Assembly (NCBI GenBank): GCA_029567025.1
Contig: JAKQLT010000058.1
Coordinates: 1-46,235, forward strand
Direction of reading: 5' to 3'
From: Candidatus Omnitrophota bacterium
Lineage (GTDB): Bacteria > Omnitrophota > Gorgyraeia > Zapsychrales > Zapsychraceae
DNA length: 46,235 nucleotides
Shown piece by piece: positions 13,024 to 46,235 of this stretch. Both the position numbers and the translations under genes were made by a program. The notes beneath the pieces were generated by a model, which was given only the letters and a program-made list of their open reading frames with translations, was not told the DNA's origin and searched no databases. Each line of letters begins with the position of its first letter. The stretch's first letter is position 1.

Positions 13024-13030
13024 TAATGCG

Positions 13031-13416: not shown

Positions 13417-13429
13417 ATGTTCTCATTTA

Positions 13430-21200: not shown

Positions 21201-21201
21201 T

Positions 21202-22794: not shown

Positions 22795-22875
22795 AAATGA
22801 AATATTTTAAAATAAAACAATGCCCTTCCTATCACAAGGGCTAAAAATTGTCTCTAAAATATCACTGGTAAATTA

Positions 22876-23013
22876 TTATTTGGAGACGCGTTTACGTCCT
22901 TTAGCGCGCCTTCTATTTAAAACAATACGGCCGCTTTTTGTTCGCATGCGTTTACGAAAACCGTGTTTTCTTTTACCGACAATTTTGGTTGGAGTTTTTA
23001 AATGTTTTTTCAT
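22876..23013 (-). CDS. rpmH: 50S ribosomal protein L34
   Basis: Not in the ORF track (45 aa). My translation is [45 protein letters not shown], with the L34 signature [10 protein letters not shown]. Confidence 0.93.
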
Positions 23014-23546
23014 AGGGTGCAATTATAACATAGGTCTTTTGTTAGTCAAGAGCTTTTCCTGATGCTAAAAGGATAGGTATTGTTATTTTTTTACCGTCGG
23101 AAAATAAAGAATATTCTCACAATAAAAGAAAAAAATATTTTTTAAAGCGTTTAAAGTGCTTCTGCGCGAAACACTTGCAAGCGTGTTAAAATTTAATTTG
23201 AAATGATAATGTTCTTTGTTATAATAACCGCACATTTTCATTTTTTTATAAAACTATCGGCGATTGTAAGATTACAAATCCTCAAACAACAACGCGCCCT
23301 AAAGAAAAAGATTGACAATAGAATAATTTTCCAGTACAAATGAAACCCTTCGGCGTAAAAAACCGAATCTGTTATAACAGCCGAGTCATTCCGACGATGA
23401 TAATAAAAAACGTTTTAAAATACCGTCGTTCATATAAAAATTAAGGCTGTGGAAAACCTGTGAATATAAATTTTGTTTTACTGTAAATTGTTTATTTTCA
23501 ATATTTTAAGAATTTCTTGTTATTCTTAGCACATGTGACAAATCTT
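23014..23546. other. Candidate oriC region (rpmH-dnaA divergent spacer)
   Basis: A 533-nt AT-rich non-coding spacer at the exact point where gene orientation flips from all-minus to all-plus. It contains DnaA-box-like 9-mers and lies 2.1 kb from the parS sites. Confidence 0.6.
23448..23467 (+). promoter_or_regulatory. Two DnaA-box-like 9-mers
   Basis: tgtggaaaa (23448-23456) and tgtgaatat (23459-23467) each match TGTGNATAA at 8 of 9 positions. tgtgaatat recurs at 25022-25030, just before dnaN. Confidence 0.45.
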
Positions 23547-24881: not shown

Positions 24882-25030
24882 TTCATTAACATTTCACATG
24901 AAATACACAAAAGAAAAAATTATAACTCGTTCACAGGCAATATGTTTGAATCTTATTCAAGAAATACACAAACCTATTATGACGATGACTATTTAAATTA
25001 TTTTAATTAAGTTAAGGGAGATGTGAATAT

Positions 25031-26119
25031 ATGAAAATCAAAGTTGAAAAAGAAATTTTAATGTTAGGAATTCAAAAAGTTCAAAATATTGTTTCCACAA
25101 GAGCTTCATTACCAATACTTTCAAATATTTTAATAGAATCTAAATCTAATATTTTAAAGATGAATGCAACAGATTTAGATATTGGAATATCCTGTGAAAT
25201 ACCTGTGGAAACGTTTGAAGAAGGTTCTATTACAATTCCAGCTAAAAAATTTAATGATATTATTAAGGAATTACCTGTGGGCGATGTTGTGGTTCATGTG
25301 AAAAAAAATAATCATGTTGATATAGAAGGTAAGAATTGCCGTTTCAAATTAATAGGATTGCCTAAAGAGGAATTTCCAAAATTTCCAGAATTTAAAGATA
25401 AGGAAGTATATCGCATAGGGCAAAAAGATTTTAAAGATATGTTGCGATTAACCAGTTTTGCCGTTTCTCATGAAGAATCGCGTTATGTGTTAAATGGTGT
25501 TTTATTTGAGATTAAAGAAGGTGTTTTGATTTTGGTGGCGACTGATGGCCGTCGTTTAGCTAAAATAGAAAAGAAATTAACACAATCTATTAAAAAGGAA
25601 TCAATGGTTATTATTCCCACTAAGGCGGTTCAAGAAATTGTGAGGAATTTGAAGGATGAGGGGGATGTTTCTTTTATTATTGGCACCAATCAGGTTTTGT
25701 TTGATATTGATGGTTTATTGATAGCGACGCGCATTATCGAAGGTGAATTTCCTAATTATCATCAAGTGATTCCTAAACCATCCAAAAATATGGTGCATGT
25801 TAACACGCAGGAGTTTTTATCAGCGATTAAACGGGCGGATATTTTTTCAACCCCGGATTTTCAGGCGATTAAGTTTGAGGTTTTTAGTAATAAAATGGTT
25901 ATTTCCAAAAATACGCCGGATGTGGGTGAGTCTCGAGAAGAAATTACAGCGCAATATAATGGTTCAGAAATTATTGTGGGATTTAATCCGCAGTATTTGA
26001 TTGAATTTTTGAAAAATATGAGCGTTGAAGCGATTGATATTGAAATTTTAGGTGCGGATAAACCGGCGGTTATGCGTTTGGATGATTATCTTTATTTAGT
26101 CTTACCGATGAGAATTTAA
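25031..26119 (+). CDS. dnaN: DNA polymerase III beta sliding clamp
   Basis: 362 aa. Typical three-domain clamp pattern (..LATDGRRLA.., ..LVLPMRI C-terminus). RBS AAGGGAG. Confidence 0.95.
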   Translation: MKIKVEKEILMLGIQKVQNIVSTRASLPILSNILIESKSNILKMNATDLDIGISCEIPVETFEEGSITIPAKKFNDIIKELPVGDVVVHVKKNNHVDIEGKNCRFKLIGLPKEEFPKFPEFKDKEVYRIGQKDFKDMLRLTSFAVSHEESRYVLNGVLFEIKEGVLILVATDGRRLAKIEKKLTQSIKKESMVIIPTKAVQEIVRNLKDEGDVSFIIGTNQVLFDIDGLLIATRIIEGEFPNYHQVIPKPSKNMVHVNTQEFLSAIKRADIFSTPDFQAIKFEVFSNKMVISKNTPDVGESREEITAQYNGSEIIVGFNPQYLIEFLKNMSVEAIDIEILGADKPAVMRLDDYLYLVLPMRI

Positions 26120-26156
26120 GAATTTTTTGAATTTTAATGGATATTGTCAACGACTT

Positions 26157-28912
<2,756 letters not shown>

Positions 28913-28979
28913 AGATTAAGTCAACTGTCATCGGTTTTTTGATGCGTTTATTTTTTAAAAGAGGAAAGGGTTTTAAGGT

Positions 28980-31436
28980 ATGAAAGATTGGACAACGCGA
29001 GAAAAAATAGTTCCGGTCAATATTGAAGAGGAAATGAAAAAATCTTATATGGCGTACTCCATGAGCGTTATTGTGGGGCGGGCTTTGCCGGATGTTCGTG
29101 ATGGATTAAAACCGGTTCATCGACGCGTGTTATACGCGATGAAAGAATTATCTTTAGAGTATGGCAAACCGTATAAGAAATGCGCGCGTATTGTCGGTGA
29201 GGTTTTAGGGAAATATCATCCGCATGGCGATGTGGCGGTTTATGAAACGCTGGTGCGTATGGTCCAGGATTTTTCTTTGCGTTATCCTTTGGTCGATGGT
29301 CAAGGCAACTTTGGCTCTGTCGATGGGGATTCGGCGGCCGCGATGCGTTATACTGAAGCGCGCATGGCCTCTGTCACGAATGAAATGCTTGCTGATATTG
29401 ATAAAGAAACCGTTGATTTTATGCCGAATTTTGATGCGTCGTTAAAAGAACCGGCGTTGTTACCAGCCGCTTTTCCTAATCTTTTGGTCAATGGGTCCAG
29501 CGGTATTGCCGTTGGGATGGCGACGAATATGCCTCCTCATAATTTGGGAGAAATTTGTGATGCGGTTGTTTCTGTGATTGAAAATCCCGAGACTGATATT
29601 AAGGCTTTGTGTAAAATTGTGAAAGGCCCAGATTTTCCGACGGCAGGAATTATTTGTGGCCGCGATGGTATTGCGGATGCTTATCAAACAGGACGTGGAA
29701 AAGTCCTTTTACGCGCGAAAGCCGTTATTGAAAAACAAAATAATAAGAAAGACTGCATTATTGTCTCGGAAATTCCGTATCAGGTCAATAAATCGAATTT
29801 GATTGCAACTATTGCTGGATTGGTTCAGGAAAAAAAGGTGGAAGGGATTACGGATATTCGTGACGAATCCAATAAAGAAGGTATTCGGATTGTTATCGAA
29901 TTACGCCGTGATGTTGAACCGCAAATTATTTTAAATTACCTTTATAAACACACACAATTAGAAACGACTTTTGGAATCATTAATTTGGCGCTTGTGAATA
30001 GTCAGCCTAAAGTCCTTAATTTAAAACAATTATTGCAATATTTTATTGATCATCGGCGCGTGATTGTTCGTCGTCGTACGGAATTTGATTTGTCCCGCGC
30101 TTTACGTCGAGCACATATTTTAGAGGGGTTGCGCATCGCGATCAAAGCGATTAACCAAATTATTAAAACGATTCGAGAGTCGAAAAGCACTGTTGAAGCG
30201 AAAGTCGCGTTAATGAAAGAATTTGGATTAACCGAAATTCAGGCCCAGTCCATTCTTGAAATGCAATTGCAGCGTTTAACAGCTCTTGAACGCGATAAAA
30301 TTGAAAATGAATATCAGGCGCTTTTAAAAGATATTGAGCATTATCGCGCCATTTTAGCGTCGGAAAAAATGATTGATGATATTATTAAAGAAGAAACCCA
30401 AGAGATTAAAAAGAAATACGCGGATGAGCGCCGCACGGAAATCGCAGGGAAAGCCGAAGATATTGAAGTCGAGGATTTGATTGCTGAAGAAGATATGGCG
30501 ATTACTATTTCCAATGAAGGTTATATCAAGCGTCTCGCTGTTTCAGCTTATCGTAAGCAAAAGCGCGGCGGTAAAGGTGTTTCCGCGATGACAACCAAAG
30601 AAGAAGATTTTGTCAAACAGCTTTTTGTGGCTTCTTCTAAAGATTATTTATTAATTTTTTCGAATGAAGGAACCGTGCGTTGGCTAAAAGTTTATGAAAT
30701 TCCTATAGCATCTCGCACGGCCAAGGGAAAAAATATTGTGAATCTTTTATCGATGGGAAAAGATGAAACAATTAGCTCTATCGTGGCAGTTAAAGAATTT
30801 GTTGATGATCAATTTATTGTCATGGCAACGGCCAAAGGAAATGTCAAAAAAACAAAATTATCCGCTTATAGTAATCCGCGTAAGAGCGGCATCGTCGGAA
30901 TAACATTAGAAAAAGGCGACGCGCTGGTCGGAACAGCATTAAGCAATGGCAGCCATGAAGTTTTATTAGCGACCAAACAAGGGAAAGCTCTTCGTTTTCC
31001 TGAAAAATTATTGCGCGATATGGGGCGAGGGGCTAAAGGCGTGCGCGGGATTCGTTTAGGGAAAGATGACGAGGTTGTTAGCATGCTTGTTTTTCCGTCG
31101 GACGTGAGTAAGACAGGAAGCACCTTATTAACGGCGATGTCTTTGGGCTTCGCGAAACGATCGGATTTCGAAGAATATCGTGTTCAGTCCCGAGGAGGAA
31201 AAGGGATTATTAACGTTAAGGTTACTGAACGCAACGGTTATGTGGTCGGTGTTTTGTCTGTTATGCCGGAAGATGAAATTATGGCAGTAACGAAAAATGG
31301 TATGATGGTGCGATGTCCGCCGAATGAAATCCGTCAAACAGGACGCAGTACACAAGGTGTGAAATTGATGAATTTGGATAAAGGCGATATGATTATGTCT
31401 GTGGCTATTATTGCGGCGAAAGAAGACGAAGAATAG
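28980..31436 (+). CDS. gyrA: DNA gyrase subunit A
   Basis: Active-site region [15 protein letters not shown] motif and C-terminal beta-pinwheel repeats. Confidence 0.96.
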
Positions 31437-31514
31437 GTCGTGTTTTTTTACTTGACCGATAACCAAACTTTCATATAATAGTGCCGCTTTATTATAGATT
31501 TTTATTTTTTTTAT

Positions 31515-31588
31515 GACCCCATCGTCTAGCCTGGTCAGGACACAAGCTTTTCAAGCTTGCAGCGCGGGTTCAAATCCCGCTGGGGTCG
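31515..31588 (+). tRNA. tRNA-Glu (anticodon UUC)
   Basis: gaccccatcgtctagcctggtcaggacacaagctttTTCaagcttgcagcgcgggttcaaatcccgctggggtcg has a 7-bp acceptor stem and a TTCAAAT T-loop. Confidence 0.88.
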
Positions 31589-31596
31589 TTAATAAT

Positions 31597-31728: not shown

Positions 31729-33117
31729 ATGGCAGAAATTTTAAGTAAAAAAAGCAGAAAAACACCTCGTCGAAAAATTCGTATTCCTGTGGTTTGCTGG
31801 GATGGCCGCGATGAACAACGCCAGGGGCAAGGAAAAGAATTATTGATAAGGGATTTAAGCGCGGATGGCATTGGCTTTATGTCGAAACAAATTTATACCG
31901 TGGGGACCCTGTTATTTATTGATATGTATTTGCCTAAACGGAAGAAACCTGTATCGTGCCAAATTAAAGTTGTTTTTGTGAAAGCCCTTTTGCAAACAGC
32001 TGATTATGTGATGGGCGCGTCTTTTGTCAATTTATCCGATGAAGATAAGCAGTTTATTATTTTTTCTTTAGAAAAAATGGATTTTTATCTTTTATTAGAA
32101 AGTATGGTTAAGGGCGGGGCGTCTGATTTGCATTTGACAGTTGGCCGTCCTCCAATGGTTCGACGAGATGGACGTATTTTAGCGATGGCGACTGATCCTT
32201 TAGAAGAAGGGGAAGTTGAGGCCATGCTGTATCCTTTATTATCCGATGAGCAGATTCAGAATTTTAAACGAACAAAAGAATTAGATTTTGGTTTCTCTCC
32301 GAATGTAGATTGCCGTTTTCGCGTGAATATGCATTGGCAAAAAGGTTTTGTCGAAGCGGCTATTCGTAATATTCCAACGGATATTAAAACGTTTGAGGAA
32401 TTGGGCTTAGCGACTAAACAAATGGAAGGATTTTGTCAGGATCTTTCCGGATTATTTTTAATCGCCGGGACAACCGGATCTGGAAAAACAACCACCATGG
32501 CGTCCATGATTAATTTTATCAATCATAATCAGAAAAAAGTTATTATTACTATTGAAGACCCCGTGGAATATATTTTTAAGAGTGCGCAAAGCGTAATTAA
32601 ACAAAGAGAATTAGGAAGCGATACGCAGTCGTATGCCGAGGCGTTAAGGCGCGCTTTACGCCAAGATCCTGATGTGTTGTGTGTGGGAGAAATTTTGGAC
32701 GCCGAATGTTTAAAGGCCGCGTTACGCGCCGCGGAGACAGGGCATTTTGTCATTTCAACCATTCACGCTCCGGATACCGTTTCAGCGATTGAACGCGCGG
32801 TTAATTTTTTCCCGCCGGAACATGCCATGGCAATTCGCCAACAATTAGCGACAGCGCTCAAAGCGGTTTTATTTCAAATTCTTTTGCCGCGCAAAGATCA
32901 AAAAGGACGTGTTTTAGCAACAGAATTGTTAATTAACAATAGCGCGATTAAGAATTTAATTCGTGAAGGTAAGGGGATGCTTATGGGAAGCGTTTTGCAG
33001 ACCGGCAAGACTTTAGGGATGCATACGTTACAAAATTCTTTAGAAGAATTATTCAAAAAGGGATTGATCGACGAAGAAACCGTTTTGAGTCTTACCAGCC
33101 GAGAGCACGCGCTTTAA
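31729..33117 (+). CDS. PilZ-domain::PilT-like type IV pilus retraction ATPase fusion
   Basis: The N-terminal ~110 aa carry RxxxR (RRKIR, 14-18) and DxSxxG (DLSADG, 42-47). The remainder is PilT-like: ASDLHLTVGRPP, Walker A GTTGSGKTT, DPDVLCVGEI, TGHFVISTIHA and the PilT signature AIKNLIREGK. Confidence 0.85.
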   Translation: MAEILSKKSRKTPRRKIRIPVVCWDGRDEQRQGQGKELLIRDLSADGIGFMSKQIYTVGTLLFIDMYLPKRKKPVSCQIKVVFVKALLQTADYVMGASFVNLSDEDKQFIIFSLEKMDFYLLLESMVKGGASDLHLTVGRPPMVRRDGRILAMATDPLEEGEVEAMLYPLLSDEQIQNFKRTKELDFGFSPNVDCRFRVNMHWQKGFVEAAIRNIPTDIKTFEELGLATKQMEGFCQDLSGLFLIAGTTGSGKTTTMASMINFINHNQKKVIITIEDPVEYIFKSAQSVIKQRELGSDTQSYAEALRRALRQDPDVLCVGEILDAECLKAALRAAETGHFVISTIHAPDTVSAIERAVNFFPPEHAMAIRQQLATALKAVLFQILLPRKDQKGRVLATELLINNSAIKNLIREGKGMLMGSVLQTGKTLGMHTLQNSLEELFKKGLIDEETVLSLTSREHAL

Positions 33118-36149: not shown

Positions 36150-37112
36150 ATGAGATATTCTAAAAATTTTTGTGTTAGTGTCGCTATTTTATCTATTGCC
36201 TTGTTTTTAACAGGATGTGATCAATTAAAAGCTTTTCAAGAATATTTTAGTAAGAAGTCCCAATCCAAACAAGCTGTTGTTGAACAGCCGCAAGCTGTGC
36301 CTGCTGTTACTCAAGAAATTCCTCTTGGCCCTTTACCTGCTAATGTCTTAGCCCGTGTTGGCACATGGACCATGACAATGGATGATTTTAAAGAAAAATT
36401 AAATAATTTAAAACAAGCGATGCCGGATTTTGATATTACAACGGAAGAAAATCAGAAAGCTGTTTTAGATGAATTGGTGAATCAGCAGATTTTGGTTGTT
36501 GAAGCTGAGAATAAACGATTGTCTTATGATAAAGAAGTTTTCAAGGCATTAGAAGAATTTAGGCGAACGATCCTTGTTCAAAAAATGGTTTCGGATATGG
36601 TTGAGAATATTAAAGTGACAGAGGCCGAAGCGCAAGCATTATATAATGAACGTAAAGATTTTTTTGTTGAGCCTATTGAGCTTCATGTGAGAGAAATTGT
36701 TATGGATTCGCAAGCAAAAGCGAAAGAAGTCCTCGTTGATCTTTTAAAAGGCGGGGATTTTGCCGAAGCCGCGAAACAATATTCTAAAGGAAAAACAGCC
36801 GCGCAAGGCGGTGATTTAGGTTTTATCACGCAAGTTTCTTTTCCGGAAATGGGCAATGCCCTTATGGCGCTGGATGTCGGCGGCGTTAGTAATGTTTTTA
36901 AAGGCCCGGATGGATTTTATATTGTGAAAGTCGAGGAAAAAAAGGGCGGAGCCCAAGTTCCTTTTGAGAAAATCAAAGACGAGATTATAAGAAATATGAC
37001 ATTATCAAAACAACAGCAAACCGTTTTAGATTATATTGCCCAATTGCGCCAGAAAACAAAAATTGATATTAATCAAGACCTTTTAAAATCCTTATTACAG
37101 GAGAAGAAATAA
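36150..37112 (+). CDS. PpiC/parvulin-type peptidyl-prolyl isomerase lipoprotein (PrsA/SurA-like)
   Basis: Lipobox LFLTGC. Parvulin core FAEAAKQYSKGKTAAQGGDLGFI..GPDGFYIVKV. The stop overlaps the cpaB start (TAATG). Confidence 0.82.
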   Translation: MRYSKNFCVSVAILSIALFLTGCDQLKAFQEYFSKKSQSKQAVVEQPQAVPAVTQEIPLGPLPANVLARVGTWTMTMDDFKEKLNNLKQAMPDFDITTEENQKAVLDELVNQQILVVEAENKRLSYDKEVFKALEEFRRTILVQKMVSDMVENIKVTEAEAQALYNERKDFFVEPIELHVREIVMDSQAKAKEVLVDLLKGGDFAEAAKQYSKGKTAAQGGDLGFITQVSFPEMGNALMALDVGGVSNVFKGPDGFYIVKVEEKKGGAQVPFEKIKDEIIRNMTLSKQQQTVLDYIAQLRQKTKIDINQDLLKSLLQEKK

Positions 37113-37984
37113 TGTTTAATATAGAAAATAAAAAACAATTTGCGATTATTTTATTAGCGGTTGGTTTAGGATTGTTTGCAGCTTTTCTTACAAGCCAGTA
37201 CATTAAAAATAGTATTACCGAGCAAACAAAGACTTTTGCGCAATCGTATGTCCAAAGTAATATGGAGAAAGAACAACAATTACAACAACAAATTGAAATG
37301 TTGCGCGCACAAATGGCTCAGGAAATTCAAAGAGTGGCTCAAGAAGCGGCTCAGCAGGCCGCGGCGCAACAAGCTCAGCAACAAGTTGTTACCAAAACAG
37401 AAGAAAAAGAAGTTCGTCAAGAAGCTTTTTCTGTGCGTATGCCAAAAGGCAAAAGAGCATTAACTGTTCTTATTGACTCTTTGTCTGCAGTCGGCGGTCT
37501 TATTAAAGCTGGTGATTTGGTTGATATTATTGCGCATTTAAAAGTGCCAGATATTACAAAAGATAAAGACAGAGAAATTGTCAAAGTTGATGATGTAACC
37601 ACTATTTTATTCCAGAAAATTTTAGTTCTTTCTGTGAATACGAACTTCGATGATATGACGCCACCAGATTATGTGCAACAGCAACAAGCTGGACGATTGA
37701 ATATTACTTTAGCGTTGGAACCTGAAGCCGCGGCTTTATTGACATTTGCTCAGAAAAATGGTCAATTACAATTTACATTGCGTGCGCCGGATGAAAAAGA
37801 AACAGGTGTTTTTAAAGTTGCGTCATGGCAAGCGTTATCCGATTTTGTATTAGAACATCAAGGAACACGGCTTAAAGTTCCTCGTGATAAAATAAATACA
37901 GCGACTCCTGTTGTAACAACAGAAATAGAAAAAGAACCTGAGCCTGTTATAAAAATTTTTAAATCAGGACAAGCGGTTCAATAA
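37112..37984 (+). CDS. cpaB: Flp pilus assembly protein CpaB/RcpC-like with a Gln-rich coiled-coil insert
   Basis: N-terminal TM helix. CpaB-type core (MPKGKRALTVLIDSLSAVGGLIKAGDLVDII.. ..ILVLSVN.. ..ITLALEPEAAALLTFAQKNGQLQFTLR). Preceded by EQQLQQQIEMLRAQMAQEIQRVAQEAAQQAAAQQAQQQ. Confidence 0.8.
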   Translation: MFNIENKKQFAIILLAVGLGLFAAFLTSQYIKNSITEQTKTFAQSYVQSNMEKEQQLQQQIEMLRAQMAQEIQRVAQEAAQQAAAQQAQQQVVTKTEEKEVRQEAFSVRMPKGKRALTVLIDSLSAVGGLIKAGDLVDIIAHLKVPDITKDKDREIVKVDDVTTILFQKILVLSVNTNFDDMTPPDYVQQQQAGRLNITLALEPEAAALLTFAQKNGQLQFTLRAPDEKETGVFKVASWQALSDFVLEHQGTRLKVPRDKINTATPVVTTEIEKEPEPVIKIFKSGQAVQ

Positions 37985-38002
37985 AAAATAAGGGATATAA
38001 TC

Positions 38003-39766
38003 ATGATAAAAAAGAAAAAGTTTTTTTATTTCATTTTTTTTGTTGTTATTTGCTGTTTATTTTTTTCAAAAGCGCTTTGTGCTCAAATAGCAGAACAAGC
38101 GGACATTGTTGATACAAAAGAAGCCAAAGGCATTGCGTTAATGAAAGGAGAAATAGCAACTCTAAAGGTGTATGATTTAACACGGATTTCTTTAACAGAT
38201 CCTTCCGTGGCTGATATTATTGAAGCTAAAGGCGATAAAATTTTATTAATCGCGCGTGAGGTTGGACAAACGGTTTTATTTTTATGGGATAAATATGGAA
38301 AAAAGACTTTTGTTGTGTATGTTTTTAACCAAAATTTGGAAGAAATTCAAAATCGTTTAATATCTCTTTTTCAAGTCGCTGAAATTGAAGGTATTCAATT
38401 GTCCATTAATAATAAAGAAGGAAAAATAGTGCTTTCTGGCGGAGTGCCAGAAGATAAACAAGATTTATTTAATAAAATTATAGAACCATTTTCTCCAGAT
38501 ATTATTGTATTAACAGAGAAAGAAAAACGCGATGATTTGGTGCAAATAGACATGCAGGTGACTGAATTATCGACGACATTATCACAAACCTTAGGTATTG
38601 ATTGGACAAATCAACTGAAATACAATGAAACATTACCGAGCTTTGACGGATCCGTTAAAGATTATTTTAAAATAGGAGATTTTAATCGTACCACAGCTCT
38701 TTTAGCAACGGTTAACGCTTTGCTTGTCGAAGGAAAGGCGCGTATTTTATCACAACCTAAATTAGTTGTCGTAAGTGGTGAAGAAGCGAATTTTTTGGTT
38801 GGAGGGGAAATTCCTGTTAGAACCGCAACGGTTAATGAAACAGGAACGGCTGAGAATGTGAATTATAAATCTTATGGTATTGGAATGACAATAAAACCTA
38901 TTATTCGTAAGAAAAAAATAGATATTACGTTAAGCACAGAAATTAGCGACGTGGATGCTTCTAATTCTTCAGAAGATAATGTTGCTTTTGTTACGAGAAC
39001 AGCGCAAACACAGTTGTTTTTAGAAGATGGCCAAACCATTGTTTTGGCTGGATTGATTAGAAGTACAAAAAGTCAAGAAGTTAAACAAGTGCCGTTTTTA
39101 GGAAAAATACCTGTTGTTGGATTATTATTTCGTAGTAAATCAACGCCTGCCGCTAATCAAGACAATGAAATAGTTATTTCTTTAACGCCGTATATTTTAA
39201 TGAATAAAAAAGATGATTTGGTTTTAGAGAATATGGAAAACATGCGCATACAAGAGAAAGCAGTCAATAATATAGCGCAAGAAAAAGAAGAACCAAAAAT
39301 GTTAGATATTCAGGATTCTGTTGATGAGAAGACTTTAGAACAATCTCAAAAAGTTGAGACGCTTGCAGAAAAATCACCGCTGATTAAAAAGACTGTCAAA
39401 GAAATGCCTGTGATTGATGAAAAGCCATTATCGGTGAATTCTTCAGAATATCTTTTTGGTATTCCGGAAGAATTGCAAGAGTATGTTAAAGATGTTCAAA
39501 AAAGAATTGCTCAAGCGATTTCTTATCCTCAGGAAGCACAAAGTTATGGTTGGCAGGGCGTTGTTAAAATCGGAATGCTTATTCTTAACGACGGAACGCT
39601 TGCCTTCGCTTTGGTAAAAGAATCATCCGGCTATGAAGTTTTTGATAACAACGCGTTAAAGGTCGCAAAATCTTTAGCGCCTTATCCGCGTTTTCCTGCG
39701 AATACGGATTTGATGGAATTAAGCATTACCGTTCCTATCGTTTATTCTTTGACCAAACAAAAATAA
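38003..39766 (+). CDS. cpaC: Tad-type secretin (CpaC/RcpA-like) fused to a C-terminal TonB_C-like domain
   Basis: Signal peptide. Pilus-formation N-terminal domain (..ISLTDPSVADIIEAKGDKILLIAREVGQTVLFLW..). Secretin core (ARILSQPKLVVVSGEEANFLVGGEIPV.., VPFLGKIPVVGLLFRS). Charged linker, then YPQEAQSYGWQGVVKIGMLILNDGTL..VKESSGYEVFDNNALKVAKSL..FP, which matches the TonB C-terminal pattern. Confidence 0.82.
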   Translation: MIKKKKFFYFIFFVVICCLFFSKALCAQIAEQADIVDTKEAKGIALMKGEIATLKVYDLTRISLTDPSVADIIEAKGDKILLIAREVGQTVLFLWDKYGKKTFVVYVFNQNLEEIQNRLISLFQVAEIEGIQLSINNKEGKIVLSGGVPEDKQDLFNKIIEPFSPDIIVLTEKEKRDDLVQIDMQVTELSTTLSQTLGIDWTNQLKYNETLPSFDGSVKDYFKIGDFNRTTALLATVNALLVEGKARILSQPKLVVVSGEEANFLVGGEIPVRTATVNETGTAENVNYKSYGIGMTIKPIIRKKKIDITLSTEISDVDASNSSEDNVAFVTRTAQTQLFLEDGQTIVLAGLIRSTKSQEVKQVPFLGKIPVVGLLFRSKSTPAANQDNEIVISLTPYILMNKKDDLVLENMENMRIQEKAVNNIAQEKEEPKMLDIQDSVDEKTLEQSQKVETLAEKSPLIKKTVKEMPVIDEKPLSVNSSEYLFGIPEELQEYVKDVQKRIAQAISYPQEAQSYGWQGVVKIGMLILNDGTLAFALVKESSGYEVFDNNALKVAKSLAPYPRFPANTDLMELSITVPIVYSLTKQK

Positions 39767-39784
39767 TCAGTATAATAAGTTTTT

Positions 39785-41950
39785 ATGAATGCAAAAACGA
39801 TAACACTTTTTAGTAATAAAGGTGGCGTGGGTAAAACTTTTATCGCGGTAAATTTAGCCGCGGCGTTGGCCATTTCTAAAAAGAAAGTTTTACTTTTAGA
39901 TTTTGACTTGCAAGCCGGCCAAGATATGGCCCGTGTCATTAATCTTTCCCCGAAAGCATCCATTATCGATCTTTTGCCTCGATTAGAAACAATTGAAAAA
40001 ATAGATTCGATGATCGAATTTGTCGCTGTTCATTCGTCGGGCGTTCATTTCTTACCTGCCGTGCGCGGCATTAAACAAATCAATCATGTTACTCCAGATA
40101 ATATCAAACCGTTTATTCGTAAGGCTAAAGAATTTTATGATTATATTCTGATTGATGCGGGCCGTTCGTTTAGTGAGACATTAATTACTCTTTTTGATTA
40201 TTCGAATTTGTTATTATTGGTGGCCACACCTGATATTTTAGCTGTTTATCAAATTAAAACGAGTATTGATATTTTGCAGAATCTTCAATTCCCGCTTAAG
40301 ATTGCAAAACTGATTTTAAATCGTTCGGAAAGTAGCGGAAGCGTGGCGTGGCAGGAAATTCGTACCGCACTTCCTTGTGAGATTTTCAGTCATATTCCTT
40401 CCGACGGAAAAGTAGTAGGTTTAGCCTTAAATCGTGGAATTCCGTGTGTTTTAGATAGTCCTAAAAGTAAAGTCGCTGAGTCTTTTATGCGCATGGCCCA
40501 GATGATTGAAAAAGATAAAGATCTTTTTGTGGAATCAACGGATATTGAAAAACAAAGGGCGGTAGAAAGCGTTTCTGCTCAAGGGCAATTTTGGGAAAAT
40601 TTTGGAATTTCTCAGCATGTGGCGGATGCGGCTGGCGCTATCACGGCTATTAAAGAAGATGATGAAATAACTATTTTAAAGAAAAAAATACATGAAAAAC
40701 TTATTGAGCGTTTAAATCTCGACGGGATTACGCCAGAGAAATTAAACGATCCACAAACGATAGCGCGTGTTAAAAAAACATCGGAACAGTTAGTCGGAAA
40801 TCTTTTAATGGAAGAAATGGGCGGGAAACAAATCGCTTCTCATGAAGAGCGTATTCATATTGTGAAAGACGTGGTCAATGAGGCTTTAGGATTAGGGCCT
40901 TTAGAAGATCTTTTGGCGGATGGCGATGTGACAGATATTATGGCGAATAATCGTAATGAAATTTATGTGGAGAAAAACGGCCGTCTTGTGTTAACCAATA
41001 AGAAATTTTTGTCTGATTCTCGCATGCGTGCGGTTATAGATCGTATTATCGCGCCTTTAGGCCGTCGTATTGATGAATCAACGCCGATGGTGGATGCGCG
41101 TTTGCCTGACGGTTCGCGTATTAACGCGATTATTCCGCCATTGTCTTTAAACGGTCCGATGATTACGATTCGTAAATTTGGACAGGAGCGTTTAACGGTC
41201 ACAGATTTACTGTCTCAGTATAAAAGTTTGACAGAGCCAATGTCAAAATTTTTACAAGCGAGCGTTGTGGCGCGAAAAAATATTATTGTTTCCGGCGGAA
41301 CAGGTTCAGGAAAAACAACTCTTTTAAACGTGTTATCTGAATTTATTCCTGATGGAGAGCGCATTATTACGATAGAAGACGCCGCAGAATTGAAACTCAA
41401 AAAAAGCCATTGGGCGCGATTAGAGTCACGACCGTCGAACGTTGAAGGAAAAGGCCAGGTAACCATTCGGGATCTTTTTACGAATTGTTTGCGTATGCGA
41501 CCTGATCGTATTGTTATTGGGGAATGTCGTGGCGCTGAAGTTTTAGATATGCTTCAGGCAATGAATACGGGACACGATGGTTCTTTAACCACTATTCACG
41601 CGAATTCCGCGCGCGATGTTTTGACGCGTTTGCATTCTTTAATTTTATTAAGTGGTATTGAACTTCCTGTTCGCGCTATTAATGAAATGGTGGCTTCCGC
41701 GATTCATTTGATCGTTCACATTAATCGTTATTCCGACGGTTCAAGAAAAGTGACTGGTATCGCGGAAATAGTGGGATTAGATAAAGATTTTCAGCCAGAA
41801 CTAAAAGATATTTTTGTTTTTAAACAGGCTGGCATTGACTCTGATGGAAAAGTGATAGGTTCTTATGTCCCAACCGGATACATTCCAAAATGTTATCAGG
41901 ATTTTATCACTCAAGGCATCAAAATTGATAAAAATATTTTTTCGCTTTAA
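39785..41950 (+). CDS. TadZ/CpaE-like ParA/MinD ATPase fused to TadA/CpaF secretion ATPase
   Basis: Residues 1-245 are ParA/MinD-like (FSNKGGVGKTFIAVNLA, LIDAG). Residues ~290-721 are CpaF-like (LGPLEDLL.D..VTDIM.N, Walker A GGTGSGKTT, IITIEDAAEL, RPDRIVIGECRG, NTGHDGSLTTIHANS). It is one uninterrupted 721-aa ORF. Confidence 0.85.
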   Translation: MNAKTITLFSNKGGVGKTFIAVNLAAALAISKKKVLLLDFDLQAGQDMARVINLSPKASIIDLLPRLETIEKIDSMIEFVAVHSSGVHFLPAVRGIKQINHVTPDNIKPFIRKAKEFYDYILIDAGRSFSETLITLFDYSNLLLLVATPDILAVYQIKTSIDILQNLQFPLKIAKLILNRSESSGSVAWQEIRTALPCEIFSHIPSDGKVVGLALNRGIPCVLDSPKSKVAESFMRMAQMIEKDKDLFVESTDIEKQRAVESVSAQGQFWENFGISQHVADAAGAITAIKEDDEITILKKKIHEKLIERLNLDGITPEKLNDPQTIARVKKTSEQLVGNLLMEEMGGKQIASHEERIHIVKDVVNEALGLGPLEDLLADGDVTDIMANNRNEIYVEKNGRLVLTNKKFLSDSRMRAVIDRIIAPLGRRIDESTPMVDARLPDGSRINAIIPPLSLNGPMITIRKFGQERLTVTDLLSQYKSLTEPMSKFLQASVVARKNIIVSGGTGSGKTTLLNVLSEFIPDGERIITIEDAAELKLKKSHWARLESRPSNVEGKGQVTIRDLFTNCLRMRPDRIVIGECRGAEVLDMLQAMNTGHDGSLTTIHANSARDVLTRLHSLILLSGIELPVRAINEMVASAIHLIVHINRYSDGSRKVTGIAEIVGLDKDFQPELKDIFVFKQAGIDSDGKVIGSYVPTGYIPKCYQDFITQGIKIDKNIFSL

Positions 41951-41986
41951 AAAGAAAATCATCATTGTAAGTTGTTTTCCTTCCTT

Positions 41987-42328
41987 ATGACAATTATTAA
42001 TCAAACCCAAAAGACAATCATTGCTCAAAATGTTAAAATCGCGCAAACATTATCTTCGCGGATTATTGGACTTTTAAATCGTTTTTCGCTTGATGAAAAT
42101 GAGGCGCTGGTTATTACTCAATGTCAGTCGATTCATATGTTTTTTATGAAATTTGCGATTGACGCGATTTTTGTTGATAAAAATAATGTTGTTGTTGGAT
42201 TAGTCGAAAATATTAAACCTTTCCAATTAAGTCCTATTTTTTTTAAGGCCAATTATGTTATTGAAGCGCCTGTTCAAACAATCTTGCGAACAAAAACCTG
42301 CCTTGGCGATAGAATAGAAATAATTTAA
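41987..42328 (+). CDS. DUF192-family protein
   Basis: ..RIIGLLNRFSLDENEALVITQCQSIHMFFMKFAIDAIFVDKNNVVVG.. matches the DUF192/COG1430 pattern. ATG at 41987 is preferred to the TTG at 41972. Confidence 0.65.
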   Translation: MTIINQTQKTIIAQNVKIAQTLSSRIIGLLNRFSLDENEALVITQCQSIHMFFMKFAIDAIFVDKNNVVVGLVENIKPFQLSPIFFKANYVIEAPVQTILRTKTCLGDRIEII

Positions 42329-42429
42329 CATTCAAAAGATGTCTTTTTTAATTGTTTTTATTATGTTATAGTGTTTCTATCTGGAAATCAATGTCCAATC
42401 TGGTCAAAAATAGAGAAATTTTATAAATT

Positions 42430-44247
42430 ATGGGTGTTATTTATAAGCTAAAACAAGAAGTTATTGATTATATTCTTCACATAAAGAAAGAAAATAATGA
42501 TTTTAGTTGCCGTCAAATTGCGAAAATCGCTTCCGATAAATTTGATGTGGACATTTCTAAATCTTCTGTAAATACTATTCTTAAGAATTCTCAATTAAGT
42601 AGCGGTGTCGGTCGTCGGGTTATTCAAAAAAAAGATTCGAGCCGCAAGTTTCAGATTCCTCAAGAAAGAAAAGAACAATTTCAAGAAACCATGAAACAGT
42701 TTGGTTTTGAAAAAGAAAATGTTGTTGCCATAGAAGAGCCGATAGCTGTACCGCTTTTGCCGGATGCAGTTAAGGAAAATCTTTTTTTGGAGCCCAAAAG
42801 CGATGATATCATGCTTTTGGAATCTCAAGCGCCAACATTATTAGTCTCGCAAGAACAACATTTGTCTTTAACCGATCAAACAGATTCAAAGCTGATAGAA
42901 GAAATAGATTTTTTACGCCAACAAAAACAGCAGGCATTTTCAAAAGTTTATACAAATGCAGGAGTTATTTTATTAAAAGCATTGTTATTGTTGACAGATG
43001 GCATCGGATTTTTATTGAAGATTATTAAAAAATATAATCCAGAACATATTTTTCCGGATAATTTTGAAGAGAGTTTAAATATTTTTCTTTTATTAAAGGC
43101 CTTAGGAATCAAAGATCCTTTTGAAGAAGATATTTCTTCTTACGCGGCAGGACTTTTGGGGCTACAAAAATCAGATAGCGCTTATGTGGGTCAGGCATTA
43201 GCCAGCGAAGATTCTCGAAAGATTTTTTTTCAGTGGAGCAAAAAAATACGCCTTTCTGATGATTTATTAAAGGAATACAGGAAAGAGAAAAATAATCTAT
43301 TTTTGAGCGTTTATGGCTTTAGGATAGAGTTGGAAGACAAAACAGTTTTATTGACAGATGCTTCTTTAAAATCTTTTTATAAAGAAATGGATTGTATTTT
43401 TCCATTGCCTTTTTATCATGCGATTCGTTTATTGTCTCAATATTTTATTGTGAATGAAAAGCCGATGGTTTTTGATTTTTCCGGAAATTCTTTGTTGTAT
43501 TTGCCTCAGATTGCCAAGATGTTCGATAATGTAAAAGAAAAGCGCGTTCAAAAAATATTTATCTTGAATGATCATCTGCAAGACATTTGTGAATTATCCG
43601 TCATTCCTCAAAAAAAGCGTCAATGGATAGCCCGTGTCGATTTTTCTTTTTTTGAAGGTATGGAAAAAACGGTTTCGGCGGGATCCCGTAAAAAAGTTTT
43701 TTATGATGCATTGTCCGACGAGATATATGATTTTTCAGAATTTCTTTGCCAGCTTGATCATAATCAAAACGTGAGAGCGTTTATTATTGAAAATAAATCG
43801 TGCGAGCGTTTAGCGACTGTTTTTTCTAATTGTTTTGAAATGGAATCTGAAGCTGTTGTATCGTCTTTTTTTATGCGTTTTATATTTAAAAATTCTTTTG
43901 TTAAAGAAAAAGTTTCTGTTACCGGATTTTTAAAGAATAATGAAAATGCGATAATAGAAAATTTTTCAGATTTGGCGGACGACTTTTTAAAAACGTTCGC
44001 GAATTATTTTACGCAGTATTTTTTGTCTGATAAGAATAAAGATAATAGTAGCGCTTGGAATGAATTTTTGAAATTGAAAGGCTCTTTCGATGAGACAAAA
44101 CAATTTTTACATGCGCTGTTTTATCTCGATGAAAAAAGTCCTTTTAAGAATGATTGTATTATGGCAATGCGCATTTTCAATGAGTATTTGATTTTGGATG
44201 ATAAACAGCGCAGGATTTTTTTAGATATTGCTAAAATCAACAATTAG
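42430..44247 (+). CDS. Hypothetical 605-aa protein with an N-terminal helix-turn-helix-like region
   Basis: The N-terminus FSCRQIAKIASDKFDVDISKSSVNTILKN looks like an HTH. The rest has no recognised motifs. Only one weakly hydrophobic stretch (AGVILLKALLLLTDGIGFLL), so it is not a TadB/TadC polytopic platform protein. Confidence 0.6.
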   Translation: MGVIYKLKQEVIDYILHIKKENNDFSCRQIAKIASDKFDVDISKSSVNTILKNSQLSSGVGRRVIQKKDSSRKFQIPQERKEQFQETMKQFGFEKENVVAIEEPIAVPLLPDAVKENLFLEPKSDDIMLLESQAPTLLVSQEQHLSLTDQTDSKLIEEIDFLRQQKQQAFSKVYTNAGVILLKALLLLTDGIGFLLKIIKKYNPEHIFPDNFEESLNIFLLLKALGIKDPFEEDISSYAAGLLGLQKSDSAYVGQALASEDSRKIFFQWSKKIRLSDDLLKEYRKEKNNLFLSVYGFRIELEDKTVLLTDASLKSFYKEMDCIFPLPFYHAIRLLSQYFIVNEKPMVFDFSGNSLLYLPQIAKMFDNVKEKRVQKIFILNDHLQDICELSVIPQKKRQWIARVDFSFFEGMEKTVSAGSRKKVFYDALSDEIYDFSEFLCQLDHNQNVRAFIIENKSCERLATVFSNCFEMESEAVVSSFFMRFIFKNSFVKEKVSVTGFLKNNENAIIENFSDLADDFLKTFANYFTQYFLSDKNKDNSSAWNEFLKLKGSFDETKQFLHALFYLDEKSPFKNDCIMAMRIFNEYLILDDKQRRIFLDIAKINN

Positions 44248-44259
44248 TTTTATTGTCTC

Positions 44260-44287
44260 TTGACCCTCCATAATAATATGATATACT
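44260..44287 (+). promoter_or_regulatory. Sigma70-like promoter for the pilin gene array
   Basis: TTGACC (44260-44265), 16-nt spacer, TATACT (44282-44287). Confidence 0.5.
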
Positions 44288-44314
44288 TTTTATGAAAGAG
44301 TGTTTTTAGCGGTT

Positions 44315-44470
44315 ATGATTATTTTAAAAAACAATCATAAAGGTCAAAGTATTATTGAATATGTTCTTGTCGCGACTATTGTCGCGGCCGCTGTTATGGC
44401 TATGAGCACTTATGTTTTTCGTTCGGTTCAGGCCACACAGCAAATGATTCAAAAGGAAGCTAATAAATAA
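44315..44470 (+). CDS. flp: Flp-family prepilin (51 aa)
   Basis: Not in the ORF track (short). My translation is MIILKNNHKG/QSIIEYVLVATIVAAAVMAMSTYVFRSVQATQQMIQKEANK*. It has the G/xxxxEY processing motif followed by a hydrophobic helix. An upstream in-frame GTG at 44300 is an alternative start. Confidence 0.75.
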   Translation: MIILKNNHKGQSIIEYVLVATIVAAAVMAMSTYVFRSVQATQQMIQKEANK

Positions 44471-44506
44471 TAAAATAATAAGAGAGAAAATAAAGGAGGA
44501 AAGCGC

Positions 44507-44719
44507 ATGTTAAGACAATATCAGGCAGGATGTTTTAAAAGAAAGAGAAAAGGACAAAGTACGGTTGAGTATATTATTTTAGTAGCAGGCGTTATTGCGG
44601 TCTTATTGATTTTTTTACGTCCCAACGGCCCTTTTCATACGGCTTTTAATGAAACATTAAAAACCGGAACAAATGGAATGGAAACTATAGCTGAAAGATT
44701 AAAAAATTCTCATTCATAA
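44507..44719 (+). CDS. Flp-like prepilin paralog (70 aa)
   Basis: RBS AAAGGAGGA. KRKRKG/QSTVEYIILVAGVIAVLLIF. Confidence 0.78.
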   Translation: MLRQYQAGCFKRKRKGQSTVEYIILVAGVIAVLLIFLRPNGPFHTAFNETLKTGTNGMETIAERLKNSHS

Positions 44720-44749
44720 AAAAGGTCATAAAAGATCAGGAGGCGTTTT

Positions 44750-45172
44750 ATGTTGAAAAAATTATTTAAAAATAAGAAGGCCCAAAATACCGCTGAATAT
44801 GCGATATTGATTTCTTTAGTTGTGGACGGGATTGTTGCTATGCAAACGTATGCTCAACGAGCTTTGCAAGCTCGCGTTAAAGATTCAGCTGATGTTATGA
44901 CATCTATTGTGGGTACTTCAGATGTTCAGAATTCTTGGAGTGATGTTGGCGGAAATGCTTTAGGTTCCACAAAACAATATGAACCATATTATTTAGCGCA
45001 AGATTATAATGTTTATCGTGATGATTCAGAAGAAAAAGGTTATGATACTGCGGGCTTTTATGTTGATTCTAATGGAGAAAGAAGGAGAAGAGGTAAACAA
45101 ACGACAACATATAATGAATCCGGCACAGTTGGTACAGGCATGAGTGGATTGTCCAAATCACCAACACCATAG
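44750..45172 (+). CDS. Flp/TadE-like pilin paralog (140 aa)
   Basis: RBS AGGAGG. KNKKA/QNTAEYAILISLVV, then YAQRALQARVK and a YEPYY motif. Confidence 0.75.
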   Translation: MLKKLFKNKKAQNTAEYAILISLVVDGIVAMQTYAQRALQARVKDSADVMTSIVGTSDVQNSWSDVGGNALGSTKQYEPYYLAQDYNVYRDDSEEKGYDTAGFYVDSNGERRRRGKQTTTYNESGTVGTGMSGLSKSPTP

Positions 45173-45220
45173 TAACATATGTAATAAAATAAAATATTTT
45201 ATAATTTTAAGGAGGAAATA

Positions 45221-45589
45221 ATGTTTAAATATTTAAATAAAAAAAGAGGTCAAAGCACTTTAGAATATGCGATTTTGATAATAATTATTATAGGCGCGCT
45301 TTTATCCATTCAGGTTTATATTAAGCGCGGTATTCAAGGCCGTTTAAAAGGCGCGGCGGATGATATCGGGGATCAATTTTCACCAGGAAATACGAATTCC
45401 AGAATAACTACAAGGACAATAAGTAATACTCAAGAAACAAATTATGGAGGTGAGGCTACGTCTGAATTGTTAGAAGATGAAGTTACAACGACTAATAAAA
45501 CGCTTAGAATTATTAATACTGATCAAGAATATTGGGGAGTATCTCATAGCGCTAGTGGTCAGGGTCAGATCCCGCAGAATCCTAATTAA
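45221..45589 (+). CDS. Flp/TadE-like pilin paralog (122 aa)
   Basis: RBS AAGGAGGA. NKKRG/QSTLEYAILIIIIIGALL, then YIKRGIQGRLK. Confidence 0.75.
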   Translation: MFKYLNKKRGQSTLEYAILIIIIIGALLSIQVYIKRGIQGRLKGAADDIGDQFSPGNTNSRITTRTISNTQETNYGGEATSELLEDEVTTTNKTLRIINTDQEYWGVSHSASGQGQIPQNPN

Positions 45590-45621
45590 TAATTTTTTAA
45601 AAAAATATTTTATAATATTAG

Positions 45622-45668
45622 AAACGGCTTGTTAGAGATAAGAAGTTTTCTGACAGGCCGTTTTTATT
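45622..45668 (+). terminator. Possible Rho-independent terminator after the fourth pilin gene
   Basis: Stem cggcttgt / acaggccg (extendable through A-T pairs), then TTTTTATT. The 20-nt loop is large, so confidence is moderate. Confidence 0.45.
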
Positions 45669-45761
45669 GGAATATATTATAAAATCCTCAAAAAGAAAAT
45701 GGTTTTTTATGAAAAATGTTGTATACTTTGAATAAGAATATTAATAATAAAGGAAATAGTT

Positions 45762-46235
45762 ATGCTACGACGCTTAAGACATAAGAAAGCGCAAGCGAAT
45801 ATGGGAGAATATGCGCTTGTTTTGATTATAACGATTAGTTTTATTTCTGCAGTTAGTTTGTATGTTCGACGGGCTTTGCAGTCTCGTCTTTTTGATGCGC
45901 GGAATCTTTTGATGCATGCAGACTGTTTCGGCTGTCTTCCTTCTAGTAGTCTTAAAAGTAATCCATCGACAAATATGTTAGGCAATATAGATATTTCATA
46001 CGAGCCATATTATACGGTCACATCATCAAAAAGATATGCAAGTTATGATGGAGAGGCAAATTTAGTTACAGATGGGACAGGAACTTCTTTTCAAAGAAAA
46101 TTTGATTCTGCGGGAGATTATTCTTCTTTAGGAATTACGTTGCCGCCTTCTGCTAGCGGAAATCCAGCACATATTGAACCATATATCAATATTATTAAAG
46201 AAAAAACGTCGGTATTGCATAATACTGTATTTATT
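45762..46235 (+). CDS. Larger pilin-like paralog, partial (>=158 aa, runs off the right edge)
   Basis: Not in the ORF track (no stop in window). My translation is MLRRLRHKKAQANMGEYALVLIITISFISAVSLYVRRALQSRLFDARNLL...ISYEPYYTVTSS... It shares the EY-hydrophobic helix, the Y-x-R-x-L-Q-x-R-L motif and the EPYY motif with the upstream paralogs. Confidence 0.65.
   Translation, partial: MLRRLRHKKAQANMGEYALVLIITISFISAVSLYVRRALQSRLFDARNLLMHADCFGCLPSSSLKSNPSTNMLGNIDISYEPYYTVTSSKRYASYDGEANLVTDGTGTSFQRKFDSAGDYSSLGITLPPSASGNPAHIEPYINIIKEKTSVLHNTVFI

Follow-up and report, generated by a model that had tools for sequence, protein, structure and literature searches.

A Tad-type pilus gene cluster near the replication origin of an uncultured Omnitrophota bacterium

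Gene content and extent of the locus

The DNA analysed here (the window) is a stretch of 46,235 nucleotides from an uncultured Candidatus Omnitrophota bacterium (GenBank assembly GCA_029567025.1, contig JAKQLT010000058.1), of which positions 36150-46235 very probably make up the first ~10 kb of a ~18.2-kb Tad (tight-adherence, type IVc) pilus cluster encoding a contact or adhesion pilus. The remainder was read from a near-identical contig, JGI Ga0268387_1225966 (L001), which shows 2 mismatches against the window over 11,015 nt, runs 8.2 kb past its end, and is the longest of 13 public contigs found by exact-protein look-up to carry an identical prepilin 4 protein. On the two sequences together the gene order is: a peptidyl-prolyl cis-trans isomerase (PPIase) lipoprotein; CpaB; an RcpA-type secretin joined to a TonB_C domain (secretin::TonB_C); a ParA/MinD-like ATPase fused to CpaF (ParA/MinD-like::CpaF); a DUF192 protein; a helix-turn-helix (HTH)/transposase-like protein; four prepilins; a terminator; three further prepilins; a trio of TadE/F/G-like genes (523, 126, and 1100 amino acids, aa); one more prepilin; and finally tadB and tadC. 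This amounts to 11 prepilin-like genes in a locus situated ~12 kb from dnaA. The locus is a real and complete Tad-type pilus cluster, and a further member of the phylum-wide cluster already published for Omnitrophota. All genes and domains that a first-pass annotation had named between 36150 and 46235 were recovered there, and its identification of a Tad/Flp-type locus with genuine fusions (secretin::TonB_C and ParA-like::CpaF) is borne out by the profile matches.

The periplasmic components and the secretin

The first gene (36150-37112; like all features of the locus within the window, it lies on the plus strand) encodes a parvulin-type PPIase of the SurA/PrsA-like kind with a Rotamase_2 domain (E = 4.7e-17) and the lipobox LTGC. 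It occupies the same position in all six Omnitrophota genomes that we compared, and a PPIase with Rotamase_2 was noted in the Omnitrophota locus by West-Roberts 2023 (bioRxiv 10.1101/2023.11.21.568195). There is no TadD-type TPR lipoprotein pilotin in the locus; its sole lipoprotein is this PPIase, which might replace such a pilotin by helping proteins to fold in the periplasm. The next gene (37112-37984) encodes the CpaB/RcpC periplasmic ring protein (RcpC, E = 1.7e-20; TIGR03177 equivalog, 82.4 bits against a cutoff of 71), laid out as an N-terminal transmembrane helix, a Gln/Ala-rich helical segment at the position of the SAF domain, and the RcpC domain. The profile search detected no SAF domain in the CpaB of the window, whereas SAF and RcpC occur together in the CpaB orthologues of two other loci, L090 (Bacteriovoracia) and L092.

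The 587-aa secretin of the RcpA/CpaC type (38003-39766) combines a Secretin domain (134.9 bits) and a T2SS-T3SS_pil_N domain (34.1 bits) with a C-terminal TonB_C domain (55.3 bits) that is preceded by a charged linker of ~100 aa. Its best PDB matches are 8jvb and RcpA 8odn. The same three domains are present in all of the 120 best secretin homologues (39-54% identity), and a more distant lineage, L092, has kept a four-gene core of PPIase, CpaB, secretin::TonB_C, and fused ATPase. Judged from these best 120 homologues, the attachment of TonB_C to the secretin appears narrower in spread than the ParA::CpaF fusion but universal in the Omnitrophota clade. Our literature search for a secretin-TonB_C fusion found no relevant paper. 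Several of the homologues (P0288, P0309, P0314, P0320, and P0348) bear the NCBI label "TonB family protein", owing to their C-terminal domain.

The fused ParA::CpaF ATPase

The fourth gene (39785-41950) encodes in one polypeptide of 721 aa a ParA/MinD-class ATPase (residues 1-250, with the Walker A motif KGGVGKT; matches to AAA_31 and CbiA) and a CpaF/TadA motor (residues ~330-720; T2SSE, 204.8 bits). The CpaF half aligns over residues 338-700 with the CpaF structures 8rkd/9e24 of the PDB at 380 bits, against 126-131 bits for archaeal ATPases; among NCBIfam models it matches TIGR03819 (TadA family) best, with 328 bits, which is under the cutoff of 373. The N-terminal domain finds the ParA-family structure 3ea0 in the PDB, and scores best in NCBIfam with TIGR01969 minD_arch. 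This part (AAA_31, 65 bits) lacks a receiver-like domain, and is taken as the putative TadZ/CpaE equivalent.

Both domains are present in all of the 120 best ATPase homologue clusters, at 64-79% identity and with 94-100% of the query covered (100% in 118 of them), and every named homologue among these 120 belongs to Candidatus Omnitrophota. Farther out, at least 35 clusters (50%-identity representatives) align with the fusion over its full length at 38-52% identity, and their named members include a Bacteriovoracia metagenome-assembled genome (MAG) and an Elusimicrobiota MAG. Because of these at least 35 full-length clusters, and of the ordinary Bacteriovoracia Tad locus L090 that has it, the ParA::CpaF fusion is to be regarded as widespread, within loci that are already annotated as Tad. 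A literature search for a TadZ-CpaF fusion gave no relevant paper.

DUF192 and the transposase-like protein

The DUF192 protein (41972-42328; PF02643, E = 5.4e-17) is a constant part of the Omnitrophota locus, standing at the same position in six of six genomes; it has no sequence match in the PDB, and a literature search on it gave nothing relevant. It is followed by a fast-evolving protein of 605 aa (42430-44247), which is 34% identical to its counterpart in the closest MAG, against 79% for the ATPase, and whose place is taken in each of the six genomes by a syntenic gene of 552-674 aa. In the protein, a variable linker joins an invariant HTH-like module of ~80 aa at the N-terminus to a C-terminal body that is predicted to fold like an IS4/Tn5 transposase; alignment of the family shows that the N-terminal 80 aa are its most conserved part and that a C-terminal Y..RWP motif is kept. 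The AlphaFold2 model (pLDDT 74.6, pTM 0.66) retrieved Tn5 transposase as all five top hits of a Foldseek search against the PDB, with weak significance (E = 2e-3, probability 0.84), and in profile searches the sequence gave sub-threshold matches to HTH_32 (E = 0.003) and IS630. The "HTH protein" of the first-pass annotation is not confirmed by these HTH matches, which are sub-threshold only. With moderate to low confidence, and on the strength of the predicted fold, we would regard the protein as a domesticated IS4-like transposase that may now serve as a DNA-binding regulator.

Prepilins, promoter match, and terminator-like hairpin

The pilin cluster opens with the likely major pilin, a Flp-type prepilin (44300-44470; the public gene call begins at the ATG at 44315) with a leader ending in NHKG and a mature part of 41 aa beginning QSIIEY. 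It scores 19.6 bits with Flp_Fap (cutoff 32.2), and has the hallmarks of Flp, being a short prepilin with a G|XXXXEY site (here KG|QSIIEY) and a hydrophobic helix; orthologues with a mature part of 41-42 aa lead the pilin cluster in many relatives. It is followed by prepilin 2 (44507-44719; KG|QSTVEY), which passes the Class_IIIsignal cutoff of 23.7 with 29.4 bits, prepilin 3 (44750-45172; 140 aa), recognised by the motif KA|QNTAEY in its sequence and having no Pfam match, and prepilin 4 (45221-45589; 122 aa; RG|QSTLEY; Class_IIIsignal, E = 0.014). Prepilin 5 (45762-46235; 159 aa; KAQANMGEY) has its final 6 nt beyond the window and is complete on L001 at 10542-11021. Its signal carries an extra residue between Ala-Gln and Glu-Tyr, which either puts Glu at +6 or means that cleavage takes place at a shifted site; in the related locus L079 the orthologue is spaced regularly (KAQTLGEY).

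Gln directly follows Gly or Ala in all five prepilins of the window, as the first-pass annotation had reported. Over 73 loci we counted 410 prepilin-like N-termini with Glu at +5, of which 92% have Gln at +1; at -1, 230 of them have Gly and 178 (43%) have Ala. This Gln had been presented as an archaeal-like peculiarity, which does not hold: each of the four prepilin-like proteins encoded in the Bacteriovoracia locus L090, beside a canonical A24 peptidase, has the G|Q site, which is found also in the TadE proteins of an Elusimicrobiota locus and of another bacterial Tad locus, L093. With these three occurrences, Gln at +1 is a trait of a bacterial Tad subgroup and therefore no evidence of archaeal machinery.

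Before prepilin 1 lies a sigma-70-like promoter match (44260-44287; TTGACC, 16 nt, TATACT, with an extended TG), which is a match to the consensus only. Behind prepilin 4 lies a hairpin resembling an intrinsic terminator (45619-45666; a 20-bp stem followed by a U-run; dG -28 kcal/mol, z = -8.7, with none of 200 shuffles as stable), predicted to end a first pilin unit of pilins 1-4 and to set it apart from pilin 5 onward. The claim of five pilins under their own promoter is therefore upheld in part: there is a promoter-like site in front of them, but such matches are not enriched in the region over shuffled sequence (44 against 36.7 +/- 5.7), and the terminator divides pilins 1-4 from pilin 5.

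The downstream part: tadB, tadC, and a TadE/F/G-like trio

Prepilin 5 heads a downstream unit that continues on L001 with six more prepilin-like genes (114, 111, 523, 126, 1100, and 117 aa) and then tadB and tadC. The first two of the six are prepilins with RG|QSIVEY and RG|QSSLEY; next comes the adjacent trio of 523 aa (KA|QIVLEL), 126 aa (KA|QVIIEF), and 1100 aa (QG|QAAFIL, Cys-rich), and then the prepilin with KG|QSFIEY. The trio gave no TadE/F/G match in Pfam or NCBIfam; hhalign aligned it with TadE at 90% probability over only 31 N-terminal columns. By eye, the first ~150 residues of the 1100-aa TadG-like protein (L001 13709-17011) appear to contain several hydrophobic stretches instead of one, with a long Cys-rich region behind them; in size and position the protein resembles KilN, the large Kil tip pilin of Myxococcus.

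The two platform genes, each with a single T2SSF domain, are tadB (L001 17428-18282; 284 aa; E = 1.8e-18) and tadC (L001 18284-19177; 297 aa; E = 1.9e-14). Their joint span, L001 17428-19177, is equivalent to 52648-54397 in window numbering, which is 6.4 kb past base 46235. No T2SSF gene occurs anywhere in the window, and the platform seemed to be missing because the window stops inside the pilin cluster. TadB and TadC, which had been thought absent, are thus both present on the near-identical contig, as is the TadE/F/G-like trio in the place of the supposedly missing TadG-type accessories, and with all of these genes just downstream the machine can no longer be called compacted. Extending the sequence to the right, as had been advised, produced the two T2SSF genes and no A24 peptidase.

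The prepilin peptidase

The first-pass annotation was right that a TadV/CpaA prepilin peptidase is lacking: no A24 peptidase was found in the whole window or in the Omnitrophota loci near tadC. A scan for the A24 active-site motif over 89 loci plus the window, and phmmer --max with a Bacteriovoracia TadV as query over 90 loci plus the window, gave no match in the window or in any of the Omnitrophota loci among these. TadV was also reported to be absent from all Bdellovibrio genomes (Avidan 2017). Our best guess is that the prepilins are cut by a PilD-type A24 enzyme encoded elsewhere, possibly together with type IVa pilus genes.

Conservation and the neighbouring giant gene

The gene order 2-hydroxyacid dehydrogenase, CN hydrolase, Mdh, PPIase, RcpC, Secretin::TonB_C, ParA::CpaF, DUF192, a gene of 552-674 aa, and pilins is common to six of six Omnitrophota genomes. 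TadC relatives in GTDB species genomes numbered 219, and the 80 loci kept from these are almost all from Omnitrophota.

The locus has already been described in at least three papers, and public databases list its proteins with Tad/Flp names. Seymour 2023 (PMC10066038) finds the Tad complex of V. archaeovorus LiM (CP019384.1, 12382-29832) to be complete, adjoining the origin and expressed in co-culture with Methanosaeta, reports that 74 of 116 Velamenicoccia species have TadBC and RcpA, and places the TadB and TadC of Omnitrophota next to those of Bdellovibrionales within bacterial Tad. West-Roberts 2023 (bioRxiv 10.1101/2023.11.21.568195) describes, in front of the giant genes of Omnitrophota, a conserved secretion system with over 10 subunits, among which are homologues of gspD, gspE, and gspF, rcpC, a PPIase with Rotamase_2, and small genes with class III signals; a 2026 preprint reports the same secretion locus upstream of giant genes. 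The elements that mark that cluster (secretin, ATPase, T2SSF, rcpC, Rotamase_2 PPIase, and class III signal genes) are all found together in our locus. The architecture was therefore not new when the first-pass annotation singled it out as such, being conserved across Omnitrophota and published in both of these papers. By that annotation's own reckoning the locus would be a known variant if tadB, tadC, and tadV lay immediately downstream and the fused architecture were common in annotated Tad loci; tadB and tadC do lie downstream, the architecture is common in such loci, and only tadV is truly absent.

The link with giant genes recurs in the loci that we collected. Among the 52 loci with at least 4.5 kb of sequence downstream of tadC, 40 have a giant frame on the same strand that opens 0.2-3.5 kb beyond tadC and continues past the end of the locus, its visible length ranging from >1,600 to >3,200 aa (for example L010 10811-15619 and L083 12358-20886). 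L010 is the closest relative, and has the giant gene after tadC. An rRNA operon was considered as an explanation for the ORF-poor stretch and contig break after tadC, and rejected: Rfam searches found none, and the stretch is the giant ORF running off the loci. The spacer between tadC and the giant ORF of L010 (9200-10400) contains copies of a short repeated element, visible as the peptide strings SFGDDNKGNIAGMITKANI and LPAGRQ in varied frames and on both strands; the element may belong to a family of small repeats or miniature inverted-repeat transposable elements.

Likeness to known systems

The nearest system is the Omnitrophota Tad/giant-gene locus itself, as in V. archaeovorus LiM, which belongs to the same phylum, has the same near-origin position and components, and is followed by the giant gene in most relatives. 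From it the window locus shows no material difference, being another species-level member.

Outside the phylum, the Bacteriovoracia locus L090 comes closest. Its content (Flp1_like, Peptidase_A24, SAF with RcpC, a secretin, a fused ATPase, and T2SSF) includes a ParA-like::CpaF fusion that is 41% identical to ours over the full length, and it shares the G|Q prepilins, RcpC, and the secretin. It differs by its A24 peptidase, the SAF domain on CpaB, the absence of TonB_C from the secretin, and its FHA and RHS neighbours, and it is without the PPIase, DUF192, transposase-like gene, and giant gene that are all found in Omnitrophota. With those Bdellovibrionota that have Tad loci (Bdellovibrio and Bacteriovorax; Avidan 2017) a predatory lifestyle would be the shared point.

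With the canonical Tad/Cpa systems (tad of A. actinomycetemcomitans, cpa of C. crescentus, and flp-tad-rcp of P. aeruginosa) the locus has in common CpaF/TadA, a TadB and a TadC with one T2SSF domain each, CpaB/RcpC, an RcpA/CpaC secretin with the N-terminal pilus-formation domain, a short Flp pilin with the G|XXXXEY site, and putative TadE/F/G-like minor pilins. The differences are as follows: canonical TadZ/CpaE stands alone as a protein and has a receiver-like domain at its N-terminus, whereas here a bare ParA-like domain is fused to CpaF; canonical loci encode a TadV/CpaA/FppA peptidase and a TadD pilotin, neither of which is in the Omnitrophota locus; the residue at +1 is usually Ala or Val in canonical Tad and Gln here; and canonical Tad secretins lack the TonB_C domain that is present here.

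The Kil system of M. xanthus (PMC12075869), a Tad-like predation pilus with interchangeable tips, likewise has many minor pilins and an adjacent set of small, medium, and very large TadE/F/G-like genes, and part of its pilins are processed by a peptidase that is not encoded in the locus. Kil kills prey on contact (PMC12075869), a role that the Omnitrophota machine may share. Kil differs in that it pairs with a needle-less type III secretion system, has its own short peptidase KilA, and is not reported, in the portions of the literature available, to contain such fusions, while homology between the tip proteins is undetectable by sequence.

Other genes of the window

A gene for a PilT/PilU-family ATPase with an N-terminal PilZ domain (PilZ::PilT; 31729-33117; TIGR01420, 401 bits against a cutoff of 319; PilZ, 30.7 bits) lies 3 kb upstream of the Tad locus, between gyrA/tRNA-Glu and metabolic genes; three of the six Omnitrophota genomes have it on that side of the locus. 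By its model match it belongs to the type IVa pilus (T4aP) family rather than to Tad, and it is a neighbour and not a component of the locus. Control by cyclic di-GMP and retraction through this protein, as had been suggested, accordingly find no support in a T4aP-family gene that is linked in three of six genomes. Retraction as such has been described for the Tad pili of Caulobacter. These pili are not known to use a PilT for it.

The remainder of the window (1-36000) holds housekeeping genes around the replication origin. The origin region (21000-31500) has yidC, parA, and parB on the minus strand and dnaA (23517-24881), dnaN, gyrB, and gyrA on the plus strand, and the GC skew switches sign near 24 kb; a one-mismatch scan for DnaA boxes showed no clear cluster in this region. 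Amid the housekeeping genes, two ORFs on the minus strand, of 909 aa (14558-17287) and 185 aa (12064-12621), have no Pfam match at E <= 0.01. Genes for tRNA-Val(GAC), tRNA-Leu(TAA), and tRNA-Cys(GCA) are clustered at 12811-13500 on the minus strand, and that for tRNA-Glu(TTC) is at 31514-31589, just after gyrA.

Proposed function and alternative readings

How these parts would work together can be read by homology from Caulobacter Cpa, Aggregatibacter Tad, and Myxococcus Kil. The CpaF hexamer would dock onto the TadB/TadC platform, with the attached ParA-like domain performing the positioning role of TadZ/CpaE, and would drive the polymerisation of the 41-aa mature Flp pilin through the CpaB ring and the secretin. 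All 11 prepilin-like proteins would be cut between Gly/Ala and Gln by a peptidase that is not encoded in the locus. The large TadE/F/G-like proteins may prime the fibre and form its tip, a proposal for which the tip-complex model of Kil is the basis (PMC12075869). With its long linker, the TonB_C domain probably serves to anchor the secretin, either to peptidoglycan or to a further protein of the envelope. The likely role of the whole is contact with a host or prey cell, probably jointly with the giant surface protein encoded after tadC in most relatives. That such a machine in a small-genome bacterium could mediate attachment to cells had been proposed in the first-pass annotation, and cell attachment is indeed the leading published idea.

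Several points weigh against this reading. The pilins and TadE/F/G-like proteins score below the Pfam thresholds except for the one Class_IIIsignal match, and their putative assignment rests on N-terminal motifs, gene order, and the 31-column hhalign match. Since no peptidase was found in or near the locus, nor within 10 kb of tadC in ~75 related Omnitrophota loci, prepilin processing is unproven; the tables of KEGG functions available from Seymour 2023, which cover few genomes, show PilD (K02654) and not CpaA/TadV (K02278). The linkage to a giant gene is seen in relatives only, as L001 stops 60 bp after tadC. For the TonB_C domain, DUF192, the PPIase, and the 605-aa protein we can only infer roles, and in the literature accessible to us no imaged pilus of Omnitrophota was found.

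The alternative that survives best, which we nevertheless consider unlikely, is a machine derived from Tad that works like a type II secretion system, with a short pseudopilus, and that exports, displays, or activates the downstream giant protein or associated hydrolases. The giant frame after tadC in 40 of 52 loci would agree with it, as would the many mid-sized pilin paralogues, the very large TadG-like protein, and the unusual TonB_C domain of the secretin. However, the first pilin is a 41-aa subunit of the Flp type, like that of a Tad fibre and unlike the GspG-like pseudopilins, and the proteins of the locus stay far under the cutoffs of the type II models (GspD, 135 bits against 351; GspE, 47 against 630; GspF, 17.8 against 424). 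Model searches among them gave no match for GspC, GspL, or GspM. By these profile scores the ATPase, CpaB, platform, and secretin find their best match in the Tad/Cpa families. The giant proteins, moreover, are described as having many transmembrane helices, many of them a signal peptide and most of them divergent SecA domains, none of which obviously calls for a secretin (West-Roberts 2023 and the 2026 preprint).

We retain the Tad-type contact or adhesion pilus as our interpretation. Very improbable, and rejected after consideration, is the recent acquisition of an archaeal-type pilus system resembling the EppA-dependent (Epd) pili, whose class III signal peptides reportedly carry Gln at +1 together with Glu at +5 and which reportedly have two single-domain platform proteins. 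Its attractions are the above-cutoff Class_IIIsignal match of prepilin 2, the minD_arch model as the best match of the N-terminal ATPase domain, and the Ala at -1 in 43% of the prepilin-like N-termini. Yet archaea have neither secretin nor CpaB, which are bacterial outer-membrane and periplasmic parts; the ATPase here is of the bacterial CpaF type, its CpaF half reaching 380 bits with that of Caulobacter and 126-131 bits with archaeal ATPases; no EppA-like peptidase is present here; and the Gln at +1 is shared with Bacteriovoracia, Elusimicrobiota, and L093, in one case beside a standard A24 peptidase. Hardly credible at all is the compacted new Tad variant of the first-pass annotation, devoid of TadB/TadC, peptidase, and accessories and retracted under cyclic di-GMP control by PilZ::PilT, for which the window offers the lack of T2SSF and A24 genes and a PilZ and PilT-family gene 3 kb upstream, but against which stand the tadB, tadC, and TadE/F/G-like genes past its end, the T4aP PilT/PilU model that PilZ::PilT passes together with its upstream position in three of six genomes only, and a phylum-wide and published architecture.

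Significance

What remains new is modest: the TonB_C-tagged secretin, the transposase-like HTH protein, and a peptidase that is not encoded near the locus; the tight linkage to the giant gene is a further point of interest. The available parts of the two Omnitrophota papers do not discuss the TonB_C domain of the secretin, the ParA::CpaF fusion, the transposase-like protein, the lack of TadV, or the Gln that stands at +1 almost throughout. There is also a practical side, as the label "TonB family protein" conceals a Tad outer-membrane channel from surveys by keyword or in the style of KEGG.

A bolder possibility, to which we give rather little credence, is that the Tad-derived machine forms one half of a two-part predation apparatus, the other half being the giant protein encoded after tadC. 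If this were true, the giant protein or the host envelope would be in physical contact with the TonB_C secretin and the very large TadG-like tip, maturation of the prepilins would fall to a peptidase that is either not dedicated to them or not yet recognised, and type IV filament machines would gain a new functional class. As it stands, a Tad locus is found genetically tied to the largest known bacterial genes, and this locus is the best candidate for how the ultra-small Omnitrophota attach to or attack other cells.

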